A program made the translations under genes and the position numbers. From assembly GCF_000953295.1 (NCBI RefSeq), contig NZ_LN649255.1, forward strand, positions 150,001-182,000: 32,000 nucleotides of DNA, read 5' to 3'. The notes beneath the pieces were generated by a model. The model had not been told where the DNA came from and did not search any database. It was given only the letters and a program-made list of their open reading frames with translations. The DNA is from Candidatus Portiera aleyrodidarum. Its GTDB lineage: Bacteria > Pseudomonadota > Gammaproteobacteria > Johnevansiales > Johnevansiaceae. How positions within the stretch are numbered: the first letter of the stretch is position 1; each line of letters starts with the position of its first letter. Shown in pieces: positions 3,356 to 31,830 of this stretch.

Positions 3356-3643
3356 TTAATTTTTTTTTAACAAAACAATTATATGTCTAATTATAAATTC
3401 ATTATATTTTATTATTTTTTCTAATTTTTTTATAACATTTTTATTACATTCTATATTTAATATTATTAAATTAGCTTTTTTTTGATTTTTAATAAAATAA
3501 TATAAATTAATATTTCCTAAATCTTCACAATTTTTTATTAATCCTTTATATTCAATAATTAAATTTATTATTTTTTTTATAATCTCAGATTTTATTATAT
3601 TTTTATTTATATAAAATAAAATAACTAATTCATAATTAATCAT
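3356..3643 (-). CDS. rpsF: 30S ribosomal protein S6
   Basis: 95-aa ORF starting M.NYELV and containing EDLG, which parallels E. coli S6 (MRHYEIV...EDWGRR). It sits upstream of rpsR-rplI. An AAGGAAG RBS at 3652-3658 lies 8 nt before the ATG. Confidence 0.85.
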   Translation of the reverse strand: MINYELVILFYINKNIIKSEIIKKIINLIIEYKGLIKNCEDLGNINLYYFIKNQKKANLIILNIECNKNVIKKLEKIIKYNEFIIRHIIVLLKKN

Positions 3644-3645
3644 TT

Positions 3646-4467
3646 TTATAACTTCCTTATAATAATTTTATTGACGGATCGGACGGGACTTGAACCCGTG
3701 TTTTCGGTTCGACAAACCGATATTCTATCCTTCTGAACTACCGATCCTTTTTTGGGTAGTGCAAGATTCGAACTTGCGACCCTCAGTTTGTAAAACTGAT
3801 GCTCTTCCTTCTGAGCTAACCACCCTTGATTTAATAAATTATATAATGCTAAACGAATAATATAATTTGATTCTGGGAGACGTTCTATATCTAAGATTTT
3901 TATATATTTATTTATTTTTTTTATTCTATTTAAATATAAAACTCCTCTTCCTGTACAAACAAATTTTTTTAAAATAATGTTTTTTATATTATTTTTTTTA
4001 TTTATATTTATTTTTTTTTCTTTAATTAAAGATATAGGTATATAATAAAAAAAGTTTTTTTTTAATTCAAAAAAACCTATATTATATATATTTTTTTTTA
4101 TTTTAATAACACTAATTACATACTTATAATTATAATCAAACCATACACCTAAAGCCAGAGCTTTTAATTTTGAAATTTCTAATATTGGGATATTTAATAT
4201 ATATGATATTCCTTTACTTATACATTTTATTATTCTAATACATTTTATATCTCCTATTAATTTCCCATAAATAATATAATTAATTTCTGATAAATTAATT
4301 TTTTTTTTATTTAAAAAATTTTTTAAAAAAATAAAAAATAAAATCTTATTTTTATATATATTTTTTTTATAAAATCCAATTATATTTATAAATTTCTTTT
4401 TTTGAAATTTAAATAAAGATATAGAATAAACATTATAAGTATAATCAATAGATAAAAATATTTTCAT
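3646..4467 (-). CDS. tsaB: tRNA threonylcarbamoyladenosine biosynthesis protein TsaB (YeaZ-like). The ORF lacks its own stop and reads through tRNA-Val and tRNA-Asp.
   Basis: Codons 1-214 (4467-3826) are collinear with TsaB. MKIFLSIDYT matches ILAIDTAT, LSEINYIIYGK..IR matches LTDI.ALAYGRGPGSFTGVR, and the tail is LPESNYIIRLALYNLLNQG. The first in-frame stop is TAA at 3646-3648. The remaining 59 codons are encoded by the two tRNA genes and the rpsF leader. Confidence 0.7.
   Translation of the reverse strand: MKIFLSIDYTYNVYSISLFKFQKKKFINIIGFYKKNIYKNKILFFIFLKNFLNKKKINLSEINYIIYGKLIGDIKCIRIIKCISKGISYILNIPILEISKLKALALGVWFDYNYKYVISVIKIKKNIYNIGFFELKKNFFYYIPISLIKEKKININKKNNIKNIILKKFVCTGRGVLYLNRIKKINKYIKILDIERLPESNYIIRLALYNLLNQGWLAQKEEHQFYKLRVASSNLALPKKGSVVQKDRISVCRTENTGSSPVRSVNKIIIRKL
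3652..3658 (-). promoter_or_regulatory. Shine-Dalgarno site of rpsF (AAGGAAG)
   Basis: AAGGAAG on the minus strand, 8 nt upstream of the rpsF ATG (3643). It lies inside the last codons of the tsaB read-through ORF. Confidence 0.5.
3675..3747 (-). tRNA. tRNA-Asp (anticodon GUC)
   Basis: I folded the cloverleaf by hand. Acceptor GGATCGG/CCGATCC, anticodon stem TCGGT/ACCGA with loop TT-GTC-GA, T-arm ACGGG-TTCAAGT-CCCGT. No encoded CCA. Confidence 0.9.
3753..3825 (-). tRNA. tRNA-Val (anticodon UAC)
   Basis: Acceptor GGGTGGT/ACTACCC, anticodon stem TCAGT/ACTGA with loop TT-TAC-AA, T-loop TTCGAAT. Separated from tRNA-Asp by 5 nt. No encoded CCA. Confidence 0.9.
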
Positions 4468-4483
4468 ATTAATGATATGATTT

Positions 4484-5635
4484 TCAATAAATAATTACAT
4501 TACGAATATCAATTAATAATTTTATTATAAAATTAATAAATTTTGCCGCATATACACCATTTATAAATCTATGATCATAAGATATAAAAATAGGTAATAT
4601 TATTTTTGGTTTAAATTTTTTCCCATTCCAGATTGGTTTTATTTTACTTTTTCCAATACCCAATATTCCTAATTCTGAATTATTTATTATTGGAGTAAAA
4701 CCTTTTCCACCAATTGATCCTAAATTTGAGATTGTAAAACAACTTCCATTCAGATCTTCAAGTTTATTTTTTCCTAATAAAGTTCTTTTTGTTAAATTCT
4801 TTAATTCTATTGCAATATCAATTATATTTTTTTCATCTACATTTCTTATTACAGGAACTAATAAACCTTTTGATGTATTAATTGCAATACTAATATTTAT
4901 ATATTTTTTTAATAAAATTTTATTTTTTTTTATATCATATGACATATTAAATTTTTTAAATTTTTTCAAAGCACAAGAACATATTTTAATTAAAAATGAT
5001 AATAATGTTATTTTTATCCCTCTTTCATATTTTATTTTTTTTCTAAATTCTTCTAATTTTGTAATATCTACCTCATCAAAATGTGTTACATGTGGTATAG
5101 TTATCCAACTCTCATGCAATTTTTTAGCATTTATACTTAATATTTTATTTATATTTTTTTCTTCTATAGAACCAAAATTATTACTTATACTTTTTTTATC
5201 TTTTTTGTTATTTTTTATAAAATCTTGTAGATCTTCTTTTAAAATACGATTTTTTTTTCCAGTCCCGATTATTTGATTTTTTTCTAAATCAATGCCTAAT
5301 TTTCTAGCCATTAATCTAACAGAAGGACCAGCATGAACTGTTATATTTTTATTATTTTCTTTTTTTAAATCAATTTTATTAATTTTTTTATTAACATTAA
5401 CAATATCTTCTTCTATTTCTATTATTGAATTACCTGAATAAATCTTATCACCTTCTTTAATTAAAATTTTTTTTATTTTTCCTGATTTAGGTGTTGGTAA
5501 ATCAATAGTAGCTTTTTCTGATTCTAATACAACAATAATATCATCTTTTTTTACATAATCATCTATTTTTACTAATATTTCTATTACTTCAACTTTTTTA
5601 TTTATATCACCAATTTCAGGTAGTTCAATTATCAA
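4484..5635 (-). CDS. aceF: Pyruvate dehydrogenase E2 (dihydrolipoyllysine-residue acetyltransferase) with a single lipoyl domain
   Basis: Contains a lipoyl domain with VLESEKAT, the E3/E1-binding motif GPSVRLMARKLGIDL, and a catalytic domain ending in SYDHRFINGVYAAKF. TTG start, with AAGGAA 10 nt upstream. Lies directly downstream of aceE. Confidence 0.9.
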   Translation of the reverse strand: MIIELPEIGDINKKVEVIEILVKIDDYVKKDDIIVVLESEKATIDLPTPKSGKIKKILIKEGDKIYSGNSIIEIEEDIVNVNKKINKIDLKKENNKNITVHAGPSVRLMARKLGIDLEKNQIIGTGKKNRILKEDLQDFIKNNKKDKKSISNNFGSIEEKNINKILSINAKKLHESWITIPHVTHFDEVDITKLEEFRKKIKYERGIKITLLSFLIKICSCALKKFKKFNMSYDIKKNKILLKKYINISIAINTSKGLLVPVIRNVDEKNIIDIAIELKNLTKRTLLGKNKLEDLNGSCFTISNLGSIGGKGFTPIINNSELGILGIGKSKIKPIWNGKKFKPKIILPIFISYDHRFINGVYAAKFINFIIKLLIDIRNVIIY

Positions 5636-11324: not shown

Positions 11325-11408
11325 AGGAGAGAGAGGGATTCGAACCCTCGAAGTTTATAACTTACACACTTTCCAGATGTGTTCCTTCAGCCACTCGGAC
11401 ACCTCTCC
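11325..11408 (-). tRNA. tRNA-Ser (anticodon GGA), long variable arm
   Basis: The 5' end GGAGAGGTGTCCGAGTGGCTGAAGGAA and anticodon region CACAT-CTGGAAA-GTGTG are near-identical to E. coli tRNA-Ser(GGA). T-arm GAGGG-TTCGAAT-CCCTC. Confidence 0.9.
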
Positions 11409-11415
11409 AATCTTC

Positions 11416-12189
11416 TTAACTATGTATACCTTTTCCTTTTATTAATAATTTTATTGATATTGAATATAATAATATAATAAATATTATTATTGCTACTAAT
11501 GATTTCTCTATAACTATATCTGATATCCCTAATATTCCATATCTAAAAATATTAACCATATAAAGTATTGGATTTATTAATGAGATTTTTTTCCAAAAAT
11601 CAGGTAATAAATTTATAGTATAGAATACCCCACCTAGATAACTCAAAGGAGTTAATACAAAAATAGGAATTATTGAAATATCATCAAATTTATTAGCTAT
11701 TAAAGCATTTATAAATCCTGCTAATGAAAATAATATAGATGTTAAGATTATTACCAATATAGTTAAAAAAGGATGTATAATTTTTATTTTTATAAAAAAC
11801 ATTGAAACAAATGTAACTATAAAACCTACTAATAAACCTCTAAATAAACCACCTATAATAAAACCATCTAATATTACCCAATCTGGCATTGGGGAAATTA
11901 TTAATTCTTCTATAGATCTTTGAAATTTATTACCAAAAAAAGAAGAAGCCACATTAGAAAAACTATTTGTGATAACTGCCATCATTATTAATCCAGGAAT
12001 AATATAAGTTATATAACTTACCCCACCCATCTTACCTAATCTAGAACCTATTAAATTTCCAAAAATTATAAAATACATAGTACTTGTAATGGAAGAAGGC
12101 AATAATGTTTGAGGCCAAATACGTATAAACCTACGAATTTCTCTTTTTATTAATGTAAATAACGCTATAAATAATTTTTTATTTTTCAA
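11416..12189 (-). CDS. yadH: ABC-2 type transporter permease (YadH-like)
   Basis: 257-aa hydrophobic ORF with about 6 predicted TM segments. It lies immediately downstream of the matching ATPase. Its size and pairing match E. coli YadG/YadH. The symbol is assigned from recollection of that pair and has not been searched. Confidence 0.75.
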   Translation of the reverse strand: MKNKKLFIALFTLIKREIRRFIRIWPQTLLPSSITSTMYFIIFGNLIGSRLGKMGGVSYITYIIPGLIMMAVITNSFSNVASSFFGNKFQRSIEELIISPMPDWVILDGFIIGGLFRGLLVGFIVTFVSMFFIKIKIIHPFLTILVIILTSILFSLAGFINALIANKFDDISIIPIFVLTPLSYLGGVFYTINLLPDFWKKISLINPILYMVNIFRYGILGISDIVIEKSLVAIIIFIILLYSISIKLLIKGKGIHS

Positions 12190-15964: not shown

Positions 15965-17056
15965 TTATAACATATATTTATCTTTAAAAGAATTTATTTT
16001 TTTTGATATATTTTTTATTATTTTTAAAAAAAAATATTTTTTTAATGAAATATTTTTTATTTTTTTAAAAAATTGATTAATGATACTTAATAAAATTAAA
16101 TTTTTTGCGATTTCTTTTTTTATACCTCTAGTTCTTAAATAAAAAATATAATCTTTATTTATTTTTCCTGTAACTGTGCTATGTGTACAAAATACATCTT
16201 TTGATTTAATTTTTAATTTTGGATTTGTTTTAATAATAGAATTATTAGATAATAAGATATTATTATTTTTTTGAATTCCATATACATTTTTTATATTATT
16301 TCTTATCATAATATAACAATTAAAAATACCTTTACCATTATTATCTATTATTCCTTTAAAATCTATATTTGAACTTGTAAAGTTATAATTATGATTAATA
16401 ATTATATTATTTTTTATAAAATTTTTATATTTAGGATAAAACAACCCTAATAATATACATTTACTATACTTTTTATTTAAATTTATTATTAATTTATTAT
16501 ATAATAAATAACAAAATAAATTTATATTATAAAAATAATATTTACTAAATTTTTTTTGATTTACAATCATATTTGACAGATGAATATCTAAGATATTTAA
16601 TTCTTCTAACTTATAAAAGTCTATTTTTGTATTATTATTTATATTTATTTCAAAAAATATATTATTTATATTTTTTATATTATTTTTATTTATATAATGT
16701 TCTATTATTTTAATATTTATATTTTTTTCAATATAAATTAATATTTTTAAATTATTTTTTTTTATATAAATTTTTTTATTTGATATATATAAAAAATATA
16801 TTGGTTTTTTTATTTTTATATTCGATTTAATATAAAGTATTAAGCCATTAAATCTATTTAATTTTATAAAACCTTGTTTTATTTTATATTTAATATTATT
16901 TAATATAATATTTTTTAAATAAATTATTTCTATCCCATATAATTTATTTATAGTTGAATATTTTTTTGATAATCTGCCATCTATAAAAACTATCAAATAT
17001 GCATCAATATTTAAAATACTTTTTTTTATATTACTAAACATATTTTTCATAACCAA
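15965..17056 (-). CDS. sufD: Fe-S cluster assembly protein SufD (highly diverged)
   Basis: Lies between sufC and sufS. The C-terminus KSKDVFCTHSTVTGKINKDYIFYLRTRGIKKEIAKNLIL matches the SufB/SufD family motif (DV.C.H..T.G..D....FYL.SRGI). The ORF-track start is TTG. ATG codons at 17050 or 17041 are more likely starts. Confidence 0.75.
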   Translation of the reverse strand: MVMKNMFSNIKKSILNIDAYLIVFIDGRLSKKYSTINKLYGIEIIYLKNIILNNIKYKIKQGFIKLNRFNGLILYIKSNIKIKKPIYFLYISNKKIYIKKNNLKILIYIEKNINIKIIEHYINKNNIKNINNIFFEININNNTKIDFYKLEELNILDIHLSNMIVNQKKFSKYYFYNINLFCYLLYNKLIINLNKKYSKCILLGLFYPKYKNFIKNNIIINHNYNFTSSNIDFKGIIDNNGKGIFNCYIMIRNNIKNVYGIQKNNNILLSNNSIIKTNPKLKIKSKDVFCTHSTVTGKINKDYIFYLRTRGIKKEIAKNLILLSIINQFFKKIKNISLKKYFFLKIIKNISKKINSFKDKYML

Positions 17057-20610: not shown

Positions 20611-21555
20611 TTATATATTATATTTTTTTATCCAATATCTTGAAATATTACTTTTTAATAAATATATGAAATAATCACTTATTTTTGGATTACAAGCATC
20701 TAACCAAAAAGCATCATTAAATTTACGTAACCATAATTTTTGTTTTTTTGCTAAATTTCTATTAGCAGCTAATAATTTTTCTTTTAATATAAAAAAATTA
20801 TATTTCCCATCAATATATTCCCAAACTTGACGATAACCTATACTTTGCATAGCTGGTAATTCCAAATACATATTTTTCATATTTTTTAAAAATTCTACTT
20901 CTGTAATCAAACCACTTTCTAACATAAAATTTAACCTAAAAAAAATATTTTTATATAAAATATCTTTATTATTATGTGTTACTATAAATTTTATTACCTC
21001 ACATGGAAAATTTTCTTTATTTTTTTTTTGCCAAAAAAAATTAATAAATTTATTAGTATTTAAATATACTTCTAAAAATCTTTTATTTCTATAAATATCA
21101 TTATTATTTATTTCTTTTTTTATAAATTTATTTTTTTTAAATATTTTTTTTAATAATAAAAAATAATATTTATCATAATGTTCTATTTTATATTTTAAAA
21201 CCGGTATTTTAGCAATTCCTTCCAATAAAATATTAAAATAAAACATAGAACCACCAACTAATATTGGAATTTTTCCAGAAGTACTAATTTTTTTCATTGC
21301 TTTTAATGCATCATTTCGAAAATTCCAAACTGAATATATTTCATAAGGATATCTTATATCTATTAATTCATGATATATCTTTTTAGGTTTTGCTGTACCG
21401 ATATTCATATATCTATAAACCATAGCTGAATCAACACTAATTAATTCACAATTTAATAACTTTTTTAATTTTATAGCTAATTCTGTTTTTCCTGATGCAG
21501 TTGTCCCCATTAAAAAAATAGCAATTGGTTTTTTATTATATATTTTCATAATCAA
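20611..21555 (-). CDS. miaA: tRNA dimethylallyltransferase MiaA
   Basis: Contains the P-loop LMGTTASGKTELAI, DSAMVYRYMNIGTAKP, GGSMFY, and QSIGYRQ. The ORF-track start is TTG at 21555. The ATG at 21549 is the more likely start. Confidence 0.9.
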   Translation of the reverse strand: MIMKIYNKKPIAIFLMGTTASGKTELAIKLKKLLNCELISVDSAMVYRYMNIGTAKPKKIYHELIDIRYPYEIYSVWNFRNDALKAMKKISTSGKIPILVGGSMFYFNILLEGIAKIPVLKYKIEHYDKYYFLLLKKIFKKNKFIKKEINNNDIYRNKRFLEVYLNTNKFINFFWQKKNKENFPCEVIKFIVTHNNKDILYKNIFFRLNFMLESGLITEVEFLKNMKNMYLELPAMQSIGYRQVWEYIDGKYNFFILKEKLLAANRNLAKKQKLWLRKFNDAFWLDACNPKISDYFIYLLKSNISRYWIKKYNI

Positions 21556-23229: not shown

Positions 23230-23655
23230 TTATTTTATATATTTATTTAAATAATATAATTTATATAATTTTATATTTCCTAAAAATAAATTTATTAATA
23301 AATTTATTTTATAAATTTTTTTATATTTTTTTAAATATATATATTTTTTTATTCTTATAAAATTATATATATATAATTTTTTTAAATATATATATTTAAT
23401 AATTTGTATTTTATTTATCTTTTTTTTCAAAATATATATTTTTTTATATTTGATAAAATATATATCAATATTAAAAATATTATTTTTTTTTAATAAATTA
23501 TAATTAATTAAAATTTTTTTTATAAGTTTTATTTTTTTTATATTTCCTAAAATATATATTTTTTTTAAATTTTTTAAATTTATATTAAATATTTTTTTTA
23601 TAATATATTTTTCACTTAATTTTAGTTTATTTATTGGAAATAAAATTTTTTTCAT
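23230..23655 (-). CDS. Hypothetical 141-aa K/I/Y/N-rich protein, possibly a degenerate TsaE (YjeE)
   Basis: A 141-codon ORF with no stops is unlikely by chance in DNA this AT-rich. It lies immediately upstream of mutL, where tsaE(-amiB) sits in many proteobacteria. [19 protein letters not shown] aligns positionally to TsaE [20 protein letters not shown], and IFNIDIYFI aligns to VYHFDLYRL. There is no other recognisable similarity. Confidence 0.35.
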
Positions 23656-29167: not shown

Positions 29168-30481
29168 ATGAAAATAATAAAATCTATTAAAGGAATGAAA
29201 GATATTTTACCTAAAAAATCTTTTATTTGGCAATACATAGAAAATAAAATAAAAATTATTTTATATAAATATTCTTATCTAGAAATAAGAACCCCAATAA
29301 TTGAAAAAACAAAATTATTTAATATATCTTTAGGAAAAACAACAGATCTAATAAATAAAGAAATGTATACATTCAAAGATAAAAAAAATAATTCTTTAAC
29401 ATTGAGACCTGAAAATACTACATCTATAATTAGATGTATATTAGAAAATAATATTTTCTTTAAAAATAAAAAACAAAAATTCTGGTATTTTGGACCAATG
29501 TTTAGATATGAAAATACTCAAAATGGAAGGTATCGACAATTTTATCAATTTGGGGTTGAAACATTTAATATGTCAGGTCCTGATATTGATTCAGAAATAA
29601 TTTTAATAACAAATAGAATTTTTAATATCTTAGGAATAAAAAAATATATAACATTAGAAATAAATACTTTAGGAAATAAAAAATCTAGAATAATATATGC
29701 TAATATATTATTTAAATATTTAAAAAAATATAAAAATTATTTAAATAAAAATATATTTTATAAATTATATAAAAATCCCTTACGGTTATTAGATAATAAA
29801 AAAAATAATATAAAATACATATTTAATAATACTCCTAAAATTATAAGCTGTATAGATATAGATTCTATAAAACATTTTGAATATTTAAAAAATATTTTAA
29901 ATTTTACAAATATAAATTATAAAATAAATACAAATTTAGTAAGAGGATTAGATTATTATTCTCGTACTGTTTTTGAATGGACTACAATTTTTTTAGGTAG
30001 TCAAAACACTATTTGTGCTGGAGGAAGATATGATTATTTAATAAAATATTTAATTGGAAAAAATATTCCTGCAATTGGTTTTGCTATAGGTATAGAAAGA
30101 ATAATATTATTATTAGAAAAAATAAAAAAATTACCAATTAATATAAAATTTAAAATAAATATCTTATTTATTATAATTTCAAATGAAAAATATTTAAAAA
30201 TAAACTCAATAAAAATTGCAGAAAAAATTAGAAATGAATTACCTAATTTAATTCTAAAAATTAATTTTTGTAATAAATCTTTAAAAAAACAATTATCTGA
30301 GGCAAATAATAAAGGTATATATATTATATTAATTTATGGTATAAATGAACAGAAAAAAAATAAAATAACTATAAAATATTTATATAAAAGAAAAAAACAA
30401 AACTTATTAAAGTTAAAAAACTTAATAAAAGAACTAAAATTAATATTTTATCATGAATCAAATTATTTCAATTATTGGTAA
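29168..30481 (+). CDS. hisS: Histidine--tRNA ligase
   Basis: Contains the class-II motifs LRPENT, FRYENTQNGRYRQFYQFG, GGRYD and AIGFAIGIERI, plus a C-terminal anticodon-binding domain. Confidence 0.9.
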   Translation: MKIIKSIKGMKDILPKKSFIWQYIENKIKIILYKYSYLEIRTPIIEKTKLFNISLGKTTDLINKEMYTFKDKKNNSLTLRPENTTSIIRCILENNIFFKNKKQKFWYFGPMFRYENTQNGRYRQFYQFGVETFNMSGPDIDSEIILITNRIFNILGIKKYITLEINTLGNKKSRIIYANILFKYLKKYKNYLNKNIFYKLYKNPLRLLDNKKNNIKYIFNNTPKIISCIDIDSIKHFEYLKNILNFTNINYKINTNLVRGLDYYSRTVFEWTTIFLGSQNTICAGGRYDYLIKYLIGKNIPAIGFAIGIERIILLLEKIKKLPINIKFKINILFIIISNEKYLKINSIKIAEKIRNELPNLILKINFCNKSLKKQLSEANNKGIYIILIYGINEQKKNKITIKYLYKRKKQNLLKLKNLIKELKLIFYHESNYFNYW

Positions 30482-31739
30482 AACAAATGTAGGGAAATCT
30501 ACTTTGTTTAATTGTTTAACAAAAAAAAATAATTCAAGAACAAATAATATTCCTTACTTTACTAGAGATAGAAAGTATGGAATATTAAAAATAAAAAATA
30601 AAAATATAAATTTAATAGATACAGCTGCAATTTTGAATGATTTTTTTTCTTATAAAAAAAATAATATAAATTATTCTATTAATAAACAAACCAGAATAGC
30701 TATTCAAGAATCAAAGATAATTTTATTTTTAATAAACTCATATACAAAAATTGATTTGTTTTATAAAAAATTTATCAATTATTTAAAACTAAAAAATAAA
30801 AAAATTATATTCATTATAAATAAAATTGATTATTTTAATAAATATATTATTACTGATTTTTATAAATTTAATTTAAATCATCCTATTTTTATATCTGCTT
30901 TAAAAAAAATAAATATAAAGAAATTATTATTTAATATAAAAAAAAATTTATATAACTATAGAATTTCTATAAAAAATAATAAAAATTTAATTAAGATTTG
31001 TACAATAGGAAAAACAAATGTAGGTAAATCTACATTAATTAATAGTTTATTAAAAGAAACACGTTTAATTATTGATAAAAATCCAGGGACTACAAGAGAA
31101 AATATAAAAATAAAAATAAATTATAAAAATAATTTATTTATTTTAACTGATACTGAAGGAATAGATAAGAATATAAAAAAAAATAAAATATTAAAATTAA
31201 TTAATATATATAATATTATTTTATATATTATTGATGCTAATATAGGATTAGTTGAAATAGATTTATATTTAATAAAAAAAATATTTTTATTAGGTAAATT
31301 TTTAATTTTAATTATTAATAAATGGGATCTTCTAAATATTCATAAAAAAAAATTAATAAAAAATGAATTAAATTTAAAATTAAAAAAATATAAAACTTTC
31401 TTAAGTTTACATTTTATTTCTGCTTTATATTTATATAATATAAAAACTATATTTAATTCTATTGAATATTTTATTTATTTAAAAAATAAAATTTGGTCTA
31501 TTAAAAAATTAACTAATTTAATTAATTTAGCGATAAAAAAAAAACCACCATTAATTTATAAGAATAAAAAAATTAAATTTATATTAGCTAAACAAATAAA
31601 TCAAACTCCAATAAATATTATTATTTTTGGAAACAAAAAAATTAAATGTTTATCAAAAAATTACAAAAAATATTTATTAAATTTTTTTATAAAAAAATTA
31701 AATATAAAAAATATTTTATTAAAAATAACTCTTTTATAA
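30453..31739 (+). CDS. der: Ribosome-biogenesis GTPase Der (EngA), two tandem G domains
   Basis: Two P-loops (IIGKTNVGKSTLFN and TIGKTNVGKSTLIN), two NKxD motifs (INKID, INKWD), and DTAA/DTEG at G3. The start overlaps the hisS 3' end by 29 nt. Confidence 0.9.
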   Translation: MNQIISIIGKTNVGKSTLFNCLTKKNNSRTNNIPYFTRDRKYGILKIKNKNINLIDTAAILNDFFSYKKNNINYSINKQTRIAIQESKIILFLINSYTKIDLFYKKFINYLKLKNKKIIFIINKIDYFNKYIITDFYKFNLNHPIFISALKKINIKKLLFNIKKNLYNYRISIKNNKNLIKICTIGKTNVGKSTLINSLLKETRLIIDKNPGTTRENIKIKINYKNNLFILTDTEGIDKNIKKNKILKLINIYNIILYIIDANIGLVEIDLYLIKKIFLLGKFLILIINKWDLLNIHKKKLIKNELNLKLKKYKTFLSLHFISALYLYNIKTIFNSIEYFIYLKNKIWSIKKLTNLINLAIKKKPPLIYKNKKIKFILAKQINQTPINIIIFGNKKIKCLSKNYKKYLLNFFIKKLNIKNILLKITLL

Positions 31740-31741
31740 GA

Positions 31742-31815
31742 AACGCCCGAGAGGATTTGAACCTCCAACAGTTTGATTCGTAGTCAAAAACTCTATCCAA
31801 TTGAGTTACGGGCGC
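31742..31815 (-). tRNA. tRNA-Arg (anticodon ACG)
   Basis: GCGCCCGTAACTCAATTGGATAGAG... with anticodon stem TTTGA/TCAAA and loop CT-ACG-AA, and T-arm GGAGG-TTCAAAT-CCTCT. The acceptor pairs G1 with U72. Confidence 0.85.
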
Positions 31816-31830
31816 TTTATAAAAAAATTA

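Follow-up and report, generated by a model that had tools for sequence, protein, structure and literature searches.

The closest precedent for the arrangement described here is found in Alphaproteobacteria, where the selB ORF contains the whole tRNA-Sec gene (selC), with partial overlaps occurring in Dyella/Luteibacter and in Nitrospirae (Mukai 2021, PMC8124441). By the account of its authors, no tRNA nested in a bacterial ORF had been reported before that study (PMC8124441). The tsaB locus of the whitefly symbiont Candidatus Portiera aleyrodidarum resembles the selB-selC pair in several respects. In both, a protein ORF has same-strand tRNA lying wholly within its 3' portion; translation of that tRNA yields the C-terminal extension, whose first residue is a Gly encoded by GGN; the end of the ORF coincides with or adjoins the start of the next gene; some relatives show a partial overlap (stop in the tRNA) or a new stop ahead of the tRNA; and the outcome proposed for tRNA excision is a non-stop mRNA. 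Like the tsaB case, that of selB-selC is bioinformatic only. The two systems also differ. The tsaB ORF holds two tRNAs and the selB ORF one; TsaB, unlike SelB, does not act on its nested tRNAs; and the extent of the tsaB overlap is not conserved, differing across all five lineages that show it. Whereas regulation was invoked for the large genomes of Rhizobiales, compaction and drift would suffice in Portiera, an obligate symbiont with a 290-kb genome. The tsaB locus would be the second, independent bacterial case of whole tRNA genes in a protein frame; it would also be the first to hold two tRNAs and the first known from a tiny symbiont genome.

Overlaps of coding sequences with tRNAs are also found in organelles, examples being Blastocystis rps12-trnN (7, 38 or 69 bp; PMC5203790) and, as cited in PMC8124441, a tRNA-Lys inside cox1 of Armadillidium vulgare. 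As in those cases, the length of the tsaB overlap jumps between relatives via small frame changes. As in mitochondrial tRNA punctuation, same-strand tRNAs adjoin or overlap the protein genes of a putatively polycistronic string, and tRNA excision would make mRNA ends. Unlike mitochondria, Portiera is bacterial and its RNase P is of the ribozyme type; after the cut, the tsaB message would end in a full sense codon, CAA, and not in U or UA; and rescue would be by tmRNA-SmpB. Animal mitochondria are not known to have tmRNA-SmpB. An RNase P cut at 3825 would yield the substrate class of trans-translation, an mRNA without an in-frame 3' stop. In model bacteria such messages are accidental, whereas tsaB would be expected to give rise to one per processed transcript. 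In tiny symbiont genomes (Carsonella and others), gene overlaps and fusions arise through stop-codon loss, usually between two coding sequences. The window shares with these genomes a high coding density, many short same-strand overlaps and probably drift-eroded boundaries, but what lies downstream of tsaB is a structural RNA, which must be excised from the transcript.

The tsaB/tRNA/rpsF junction

The window is the whole 32,000-nucleotide stretch that was analyzed, from Portiera strain AD-CAI of Aleurodicus dispersus. In it, the tsaB ORF (3646..4467, minus strand) extends over 273 codons; in the ORF list with translation, its C-terminal region reads ...RLALYNLLNQ followed by GWLAQKEEHQFYKLRVASS...PVRSVNKIIIRKL. 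The features of the junction are collected in Table 1.

Table 1. Features at the tsaB/tRNA/rpsF junction (positions in the window)
Feature	Position	Strand	Basis or remark
aceF (pyruvate dehydrogenase E2)	4484..5635	-	Pfam, NCBIfam; upstream, 16 nt from tsaB
tsaB (yeaZ) core	3826..4467	-	214 codons; ATG at 4467, final homologous codon CAA 3828-3826
Out-of-frame TAA inside TTATTAAA	3831..3833	-	sequence
tsaB frame extension, 59 codons (3825-3649) + stop TAA (3648-3646)	3646..3825	-	translation and frame analysis
tRNA-Val(UAC), CCA not encoded	3753..3825	-	ARAGORN, Rfam, fold
AAG codon; TAG in sister strain	3808..3810	-	3810 = tRNA-Val nt 16, D-loop
Inter-tRNA spacer AAAAA	3748..3752	-	5 nt in Aleurodicus strains
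tRNA-Asp(GUC), CCA not encoded	3675..3747	-	ARAGORN, Rfam, fold
rpsF leader, 31 nt, Shine-Dalgarno-like AAGGAAG	3644..3674	-	contains end of extended tsaB frame
rpsF (ribosomal protein S6), next same-strand gene	3356..3643	-	PF01250 53.8 bits, TIGR00166 48.2 bits

An earlier note on this DNA, made from the letters alone, had placed the end of TsaB homology at the CAA codon, the 5' end of tRNA-Val on a codon boundary and the first in-frame stop at the TAA next to rpsF. All three statements are borne out: orthologues with a stop of their own end 3-7 codons past a conserved R-L-A motif, G1 of tRNA-Val is codon position 1, and the translation contains 59 additional codons. These correspond to 73 + 5 + 73 + 26 nt, that is, tRNA-Val, the spacer, tRNA-Asp and the part of the rpsF leader that bears AAGGAAG. 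Both tRNAs lie inside codons 215-265, on the coding strand, and the extended frame stops 2 nt short of the rpsF ATG, with no overlap. The tRNA calls of the note are sound as well. ARAGORN finds tRNA-Val(tac) and tRNA-Asp(gtc), and Rfam RF00005, whose gathering score is 29, gives them 69.9 and 67.3 bits; in minimum-free-energy folds both are cloverleafs (tRNA-Val -26.2 kcal/mol, z -3.8). With two programs scoring both tRNAs high, miscalled tRNAs do not account for the long frame.

Neither does a sequencing slip that hides an ordinary gene end. The TAA at 3833-3831 is present and out of frame, as the note had it; the frame and the TTATTAAA string around it match relatives base for base, and the conservation of this string in three other lineages (L002, L003, L009) argues against a local frameshift error. 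This TAA is possibly a relic of an ancestral stop. A programmed frameshift onto it was considered and rejected, there being no slippery motif and no equivalent in the lineages of other phases.

What is specific to the window is one T-to-A change at 3810, by which a TAG becomes AAG. The lost TAG had been the sole in-frame stop over both tRNAs when stops were listed per frame, and the change does not lower the tRNA model score (69.9 bits in the window versus 68.2). A further TAG, at U8-A9-G10 of tRNA-Asp, is set out of the tsaB frame by the 5-nt spacer, so that, given the substitution, the frame runs on to the TAA ahead of rpsF. The probability of an open frame over the tRNA pair by chance is about 0.05 for 50 codons at that composition; with the D-loop stop gone, an open frame over this relatively G+C-rich pair is unremarkable.

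The 273-aa product is 100% identical, tRNA-encoded C-terminus included, to GenBank CEI58732.1 from the Portiera AD-CAI genome (290,195 bp), and the AceF of the window is 100% identical to CEI58734.1. The read-through ORF is therefore already in GenBank as a CDS. No paper found in our literature search mentions tsaB/yeaZ in Portiera or a tsaB-tRNA overlap.

A drifting overlap in Portiera lineages

We compared the window with seven other Portiera lineages, whose orthologous loci were fetched via an aceF homologue search. A contig search with AceF gave a sole match, in a distant MAG (37% identity), and a metagenome scan with the conserved tsaB 3' pattern gave zero matches. The earlier note had presented tsaB as lacking a stop codon. 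This is so in the window, but it is not unique: a tsaB stop before tRNA-Val is absent from five of the eight lineages (AD-CAI, A. floccissimus, T. vaporariorum, Pealius mori and L009), four compact lineages thus sharing the condition with AD-CAI. The other three (Bemisia, Singhiella and one ENA contig) all have expanded spacers and stops of their own 2-13 nt ahead of the tRNA.

In the lineages without their own stop, the tsaB frame crosses into the tRNA in all three phases. The first in-frame stop in L009 is U8-A9-G10 of tRNA-Val (nt 8-10), leaving a tail of 2 aa. In the sister strain AF-CAI of A. floccissimus it is a TAG at nt 16-18 in the tRNA-Val D-loop, reached after 5 codons, and in P. 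mori it is likewise at D-loop nt 16-18. In T. vaporariorum all of tRNA-Val is read through and the stop lies in the D-loop of tRNA-Asp, for a tail of 29 aa. The strains thus form a series that goes from an own stop through overlaps of 10, 18 and 95 nt to one of 180 nt. Full nesting of both tRNAs is seen in AD-CAI alone and of one tRNA in T. vaporariorum alone; the remaining lineages have an overlap of 10 or 18 nt, or none. The inter-tRNA spacer, 5 nt long in the Aleurodicus strains, measures 7 nt in T. vaporariorum, P. mori and L009, and the context of tRNA-Val nt 16 is cagAagg in the window and cagTagg in L002, L003, L006 and L009. Read together, these comparisons show the AD-CAI read-through to be the most recent step in the drift of an old overlap between gene and tRNA, and not an error.

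The D-loop carries TAGG in four of the five lineages without their own stop and in none of the three with one, a pattern that amounts to just one or two independent phylogenetic contrasts. The in-tRNA stop could be under selection, in which case its loss in the window would not be neutral. We did not adopt selection for the D-loop TAG as a tsaB stop, as T. vaporariorum and L009 keep TAGG even though it is out of frame there.

Proposed translation, tRNA excision and ribosome rescue

We favor, with somewhat better than even confidence, the view that the overlap results from neutral erosion of the stop codon in an extremely compact genome, and that it is tolerated rather than used. The Portiera genome is 95% coding. 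The comparison shows that tsaB lost a stop of its own long ago in the compact-genome lineages; its frame enters the abutting same-strand tRNA-Val, and the first in-frame stop is whatever the tRNA sequence happens to supply. At rps12-trnN in Blastocystis organelle genomes, the length of the overlap is documented to drift in an analogous way, by changes of frame (PMC5203790). Drift probably fixed the change at 3810 after the split of the two Aleurodicus strains, which dates back roughly 18-20 My, and no regulatory purpose would be required for the overlap.

How such a gene might be expressed depends on its transcript. The claim that tsaB sits in an unbroken string of same-strand genes is confirmed in the ORF list, where spacers measure 1-17 nt, and co-transcription of the string is plausible from this layout. 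In a promoter/terminator scan, the minus strand between tsaB and rpsF had no site resembling a terminator, and the final ~215 nt of tsaB had none resembling a promoter; the scan gave no informative signal, and it yielded fewer promoter-like matches than expected from shuffles. A perfect TATAAT 12 nt ahead of G1 was considered as a tRNA promoter and set aside, being by eye not conserved in the other lineages. The tRNAs may nonetheless have an internal promoter in sequence of 80% A+T. The layout fits a putative polycistronic unit of the tRNA punctuation type, in which same-strand tRNAs directly flank protein genes.

Under the erosion view, a single precursor transcript would carry aceF, tsaB, tRNA-Val, tRNA-Asp, rpsF and beyond. 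Any ribosome arriving at the end of tsaB ahead of tRNA excision would probably unfold the tRNAs, and the TsaB that it makes would bear a tail encoded by them. TsaB would have to tolerate such tails, of 59 aa in AD-CAI and of 2, 5 and 29 aa in relatives. RNase P would presumably also cut at G1 (3825), since tRNA-Val and tRNA-Asp are needed, and would leave stop-less tsaB messages ending in ...AAU CAA; ribosomes stalled on these would be freed by tmRNA-SmpB. ARAGORN detects no tmRNA in the 32-kb window. The rescue machinery that the earlier note proposed to look for is nevertheless encoded according to Portiera genome papers, as is the RNA of RNase P: one tmRNA per genome and rnpB (RNase P RNA) are reported for all Portiera genomes (PMC5322561; PMC7821994 Table 1) and smpB is among the listed Portiera genes (PMC13637331). 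The note's two fates, a tailed TsaB or a non-stop message with rescue, are the right alternatives. It went too far in stating that a single transcript cannot yield both a terminated message and mature tRNAs, as translation could come first and processing afterwards. Its suggestion that 3' A-addition might complete a stop fails altogether: on a message cut after ...AAU CAA, added A's give AAA (Lys) codons and poly(A) makes no stop. Against the erosion view it can be said that a dimerisation subunit of 214 aa might be harmed by an added tail of 59 aa.

It is tempting to take the analogy with organelles further and to suppose that, in all compact Portiera, a fast RNase P cut at G1 of tRNA-Val sets the 3' end of the tsaB mRNA. 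In this scenario, which we consider rather unlikely, TsaB would routinely come from an mRNA that lacks a stop and be freed by tmRNA-SmpB (tagged, yet working) or by another route, and the in-tRNA stops would be irrelevant bystanders. The position of the first downstream stop is indeed not conserved, falling in three phases and at four places, and tsaB shows no visible decay in the window although the in-tRNA stop is gone. Moreover, a 290-kb genome has kept tmRNA, rnpB and smpB, and the tRNAs must be excised from any transcript that carries them. In studied bacteria, however, trans-translation marks its product for proteolysis, which would make it a wasteful route to a needed protein; and with translation coupled to transcription, the first ribosomes would probably precede the folding and cutting of the tRNAs. 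If this scenario were true, tsaB would have had no need of a stop codon for tens of millions of years in several lineages.

Whichever holds, the AD-CAI/AF-CAI pair, in which one base decides between a 59-aa and a 5-aa tail, constitutes a natural experiment. It bears on the competition between translation and tRNA excision for a single transcript, on how much sloppiness a protein of an essential pathway tolerates, and on whether trans-translation is by now a routine step of expression in organelle-like bacteria.

Identity of TsaB and constraint on its frame

The tsaB sequence is extremely A+T-biased and divergent. Its product scores 23.6 bits against TIGR03725 (TsaB), under the cutoff of 69.3, with positions 40-203 of the 212 in the profile covered, and 20.9 bits against Pfam TsaD, under the cutoff of 24.8. 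The six best PDB matches of a profile built from the 8 Portiera orthologues are nonetheless all YeaZ/TsaB (3zet, 2gel, 4wq4, 1okj, 4y0w, 5br9), with E values of 1.8e-4 to 1.1e-3 over the N-terminal domain, which is weak but specific. AlphaFold2 run on the 8-sequence alignment gave a mean pLDDT of 41 and a pTM of 0.36, too poor for a search aimed at an ASKHA-type fold. The depositors' name for the product is t6A37 modification protein.

It could be argued that tsaB is inactivated or becoming a pseudogene in AD-CAI, loss of the stop having produced an unstable or misfolded protein whose core is intact only because the event is recent. The HMM scores far under curated cutoffs can be read in this way, as can the lack of a RefSeq WP_ accession for the 273-aa product when the 219-aa product of the sister strain has one, and the high dN/dS in deep comparisons. 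Such a loss of function seems improbable to us. Every Portiera orthologue has a similarly low HMM score, and yet the orthologues are mutually conserved, being 53-99% identical and intact in 8 lineages that span the deepest Portiera split. With the sister strain, the core shares 99% identity (2 nonsynonymous and 3 synonymous changes), with no frameshift and no internal stop, and in the Portiera of T. vaporariorum the core is intact despite a 29-aa tRNA-encoded tail. The tsaD gene is retained: it adjoins rsmA in L002, L003 and L006 (product matching PF00814, about 340 aa), and the corresponding ORF ends at window position 527. A 214-codon frame would be open by chance in this 80% A+T genome with a probability of about 3e-11, which implies that the frame is maintained by selection. 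The constraint is weak to judge by Nei-Gojobori dN/dS of 0.5-0.95 in deep comparisons, values that are inflated by saturation of A+T-biased synonymous sites; dN/dS is in any case of limited use here, given the extreme A+T bias and the 5 substitutions alone in the close pair. We regard tsaB as remaining a gene.

We are very doubtful of a regulated either/or of the kind proposed for selB-selC, in which folding and excision of the nested tRNAs would switch off full-length TsaB, with a leader-dependent effect on rpsF, and the overlap would be kept as a homeostatic device. The layout does fit Mukai's model of whole tRNA(s) in an ORF that ends beside the next gene start (PMC8124441), and some overlap persists in five lineages. 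However, its extent is different in every lineage, full nesting of both tRNAs is limited to one strain and is at most ~20 My old, and lineages with intergenic room have simply separated tsaB and tRNA. A functional link like that of SelB with tRNA-Sec is lacking too: published abstracts place t6A on ANN-decoding tRNAs, and the anticodons UAC and GUC decode GUN and GAY, so that the nested tRNAs are not t6A substrates.

Finally, a base-call error at 3810 (the sister strain's TAG then being the true sequence here too, with an ORF of 219 codons) is extremely unlikely: although the whole difference hangs on a single base and an independent assembly of the AD-CAI strain was not found, the genome was covered about 90x (454) and 1,500x (Illumina) (PMC5322561), further strain-specific substitutions at tRNA-Val nt 32 and at two sites of tRNA-Asp make real divergence evident, and even such an error would leave tsaB overlapping tRNA-Val by 18 nt.

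The overlap also has a consequence for annotation, in that deposited proteins of 273, 243, 221 and 219 aa have translated-tRNA C-termini.

The tsaB frame and the tRNA genes downstream

The earlier note described tsaB as a gene without a stop, its frame open through two tRNA genes on the same strand, and its anatomical details are borne out in the window. The ORF continues for 59 codons past ...LLNQ, so that in translation the core ends in ...RLALYNLLNQ and is followed by the tail GWLAQKEEHQ...NKIIIRKL. The first base of codon 215 is G1 of tRNA-Val, placing the 5' end of this tRNA on a codon boundary. The added codons consist of tRNA-Val (73 nt), AAAAA, tRNA-Asp (73 nt) and 26 nt of rpsF leader; the frame closes at a TAA (3648-3646), which the rpsF ATG follows after two bases, and the TAA at 3833-3831 is indeed present, out of frame. 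Both tRNA calls are genuine, scoring against a model threshold of 29 bits as listed in the table and each folding singly into a cloverleaf at minimum free energy. The read-through is real, and is an artefact neither of tRNA calling nor of a local frameshift.

Features of the tsaB region in the window
Feature	Position	Strand	Basis
tsaB ORF	3646..4467	-	273 codons, ORF list
tRNA-Val(UAC)	3753..3825	-	ARAGORN; Rfam tRNA model 69.9 bits
tRNA-Asp(GUC)	3675..3747	-	ARAGORN; Rfam tRNA model 67.3 bits

Nucleotide 32 of tRNA-Val (window 3794) is U in AD-CAI and A in all other lineages. With U32 the minimum-free-energy fold pairs 32-38 and 33-37, giving a 7-bp anticodon stem and a 3-nt loop; this stem is probably an artefact of the folding program.

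We read tsaB as a genuine gene under weak constraint. Its product is only a weak match to family models: TIGR03725 scores 23.6 bits (cutoff 69.3), though the alignment covers positions 40-203 of the 212 in the profile, and Pfam TsaD scores 20.9 bits; the best six PDB matches of a profile built from eight Portiera orthologues are all YeaZ/TsaB chains (E ~2e-4 to 1e-3). The predicted structure (pLDDT 41) is too poor for use. Orthologues, 53-99% identical to the window's protein, are intact in 8/8 lineages examined, and the chance of a 214-codon open frame at the window's composition is ~3e-11. The core differs from that of the sister strain AF-CAI by two nonsynonymous and three synonymous changes, and tsaD is kept in Portiera (loci L002, L003 and L006). 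In the window, tsaD, the catalytic partner of tsaB, lies only 3 kb from it; this plus-strand gene extends past the window start and ends at 527, converging with zero spacer on the rsmA stop at 528 (minus strand).

The read-through ORF is already public, since GenBank CEI58732.1, deposited as 'tRNA(ANN) t(6)A37 threonylcarbamoyladenosine modification protein', matches its 273-aa product at 100% identity (cluster look-up). AceF, encoded next to tsaB, is 100% identical to CEI58734.1 by the same look-up, and a homologue search matches it to a Portiera aleyrodidarum protein at 97% identity. Both records come from one 290,195-bp genome, that of Portiera AD-CAI of Aleurodicus dispersus (Table 1 in PMC5322561), accession LN649255 (PMC13637331). 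A literature search found no published comment on the read-through ORF. The 273-aa product is also UniProt A0A8D9NAX2 but is listed without a RefSeq WP accession; one is given both for the neighbouring AceF and for the 219-aa TsaB of AF-CAI. RefSeq may treat AD-CAI tsaB differently from that of other strains.

The junction across Portiera lineages

Orthologous junctions were retrieved through AceF and TsaB homologues and their sequences read directly.

The tsaB-tRNA junction in other Portiera lineages (own stop, a tsaB stop ahead of tRNA-Val)
Lineage	Junction	Stop	Product
AF-CAI, A. floccissimus (L002)	...AAT CAA GGG TGG TTA GCT CAG TAG; window's phase	tRNA-Val nt 16-18, D-loop	219 aa
Pealius mori (L006)	window's phase	D-loop, as in AF-CAI	221 aa
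Logan contig (L009)	G1 = codon base 3	TAG at U8-A9-G10	214 aa
T. vaporariorum type (L003/L004)	G1 = codon base 2; tRNA-Val without stop	TAG in tRNA-Asp D-loop	243 aa, deposited
Singhiella simplex (L007)		own stop, 2 nt ahead of tRNA	219 aa
B. tabaci (L005)		own stop, 7 nt ahead of tRNA	214 aa
ENA contig (L008)		own stop, 13 nt ahead of tRNA	214 aa

Lineages without an own stop occur among the symbionts of both whitefly subfamilies. In the published tree Aleurodicus branches first, followed by Trialeurodes, Pealius and Singhiella plus Bemisia (PMC7821994). Together these points lead parsimony to favor slightly an overlap already present in the Portiera ancestor, the alternative being independent losses. 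Expanded intergenic DNA is known for the Singhiella and B. tabaci lineages (PMC7821994). In B. tabaci, tRNA-Val and tRNA-Asp stand ~940 nt apart (L005 5859-6801), separated by non-coding DNA that is A/C-rich and contains repeats, CTGCTACTGCTACTGCTA and CAGCAACCAGCAACCAGCCACCAGCC among them; the gap is 5-12 nt in the window, L002, L003/L004, L006, L007 and L009, where both tRNAs were found. The T. vaporariorum-type gene is an independent case of full nesting: its deposited TsaB (AGI27154.1 / CEI59131.1; L003 5099-5830) encloses the entire tRNA-Val, in a phase unlike the window's.

Over the stretch from tsaB to rpsF, 11/833 positions distinguish the window from AF-CAI. At tRNA-Val nt 16 (window 3810) the window has A and AF-CAI, T. 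vaporariorum, P. mori and L009 have T. The T-to-A change converts TAG to AAG in the tsaB frame, and in the Aleurodicus strains no stop other than this D-loop TAG falls in frame across the two tRNAs; with an inter-tRNA spacer of A5, not A7, the TAG at U8-A9-G10 of tRNA-Asp is out of frame. Once the D-loop stop is lost, an open frame over ~50 codons of tRNA-like composition is not improbable (~0.05). Nucleotide 16 is a variable D-loop position, and the tRNA model score is not lowered (69.9 versus 68.2 bits). The two strains split ~18-20 My ago (PMC5322561, PMC7821994), which sets an upper bound on the age of the change. Between them, the two tRNAs (window 3675-3825 versus L002 5812-5962) show 4 substitutions in 146 nt and the tsaB core 5 in 642 nt, the tRNAs thus evolving at least as fast as weakly constrained tsaB. 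One tRNA-Asp change restores a U4-A69 pair in AD-CAI at the place of a U-G in AF-CAI.

Expression, alternatives and precedents

The genes between 13130 and 528 follow one another on the same strand as a single string, spaced 1-17 nt apart. A promoter/terminator scan found no terminator-like site between tsaB and rpsF on the tsaB strand and no promoter-like site within the final ~215 nt of tsaB. The simplest reading is therefore that one precursor would carry tsaB, both tRNAs and rpsF. The anatomy and the evolutionary series are shown directly; how tsaB might be expressed we infer. Both tRNAs would necessarily be excised from the precursor; RNase P RNA is encoded in Portiera genomes (PMC5322561, PMC7821994), and its cut at G1 would leave a tsaB message ending ...AAU CAA. 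Stop completion by A-addition in mitochondrial fashion, which the earlier note had entertained, is excluded by the sequence, as A's added after CAA yield Lys codons. Cut messages would need rescue, and genome papers report both tmRNA (PMC5322561, PMC7821994) and smpB (PMC13637331) among Portiera genes. Ribosomes arriving ahead of the cut would translate on into tRNA sequence and halt wherever the frame permits, with tails of 2 (L009), 5, 29 or, in the window, 59 residues.

The stop position varies in nearly every lineage and is lost in the window with the core intact, from which we conclude that sequence past ...LLNQ is probably under little selection. We lean towards regarding the read-through as tolerated erosion of a gene boundary rather than a device, and this neutral account is the likeliest. 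It is possible, though unlikely, that expression is organelle-like, with the RNase P cut always winning and TsaB routinely made from a non-stop message: the lack of conservation of stop positions fits, but trans-translation is degradative in studied bacteria. That AD-CAI tsaB is an incipient pseudogene is quite improbable, given its intact core and the long-standing 29-aa tail of T. vaporariorum. Nor does a regulatory either/or switch, as proposed for selB-selC, seem at all probable, given an unconserved overlap and the fact that neither tRNA-Val nor tRNA-Asp is a t6A substrate. A base-call error at 3810 is very unlikely, coverage being 90x/1,500x (PMC5322561), the two tRNAs carrying three further strain-specific changes, and an 18-nt overlap remaining regardless.

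The closest precedent for the tsaB-tRNA nesting is selB-selC. In diverse Alphaproteobacteria the selB ORF encloses an entire tRNA-Sec gene and ends at the start of the next ORF (Mukai 2021, PMC8124441), a layout described there as the first bacterial ORF with a tRNA nested inside; relatives have partial overlaps or new stops, and tRNA-Sec excision was proposed to yield a non-stop selB mRNA (PMC8124441). Portiera tsaB matches it both in layout and in the range of variants seen. Unlike selB, it holds two tRNAs, these have no functional link to their host gene, and it resides in a genome where compaction and drift suffice as causes. Organelles offer parallels in the Blastocystis rps12-trnN overlap of 7, 38 or 69 bp, which jumps via frame changes (PMC5203790), and in Armadillidium cox1 with tRNA-Lys inside, as cited in PMC8124441. 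The earlier note described the stopless gene correctly, but the significance of the feature is more modest than the absence of a stop codon would suggest: the window's tsaB frame is one base away from an 18-nt overlap, old and variable in this symbiont. The junction still offers a clean natural test of how translation and tRNA processing compete, and of how far tiny genomes use trans-translation.

Gene boundaries in the AD-CAI genome are commonly eroded, as several same-strand ORF overlaps of 4-29 nt attest (2670-2676, 17034-17056, 21552-21555, 23627-23655 and 30453-30481; 7 nt for rplI/dnaB). The plus-strand ORF 30453..31739 runs with zero spacer up to the antisense gene for tRNA-Arg(ACG) (31740..31816, minus strand), its stop touching the tRNA 3' end. 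At the window's only other same-strand ORF-to-tRNA junction, ORF 11416..12189 keeps its own stop 7 nt ahead of tRNA-Ser(GGA) (11325..11408).
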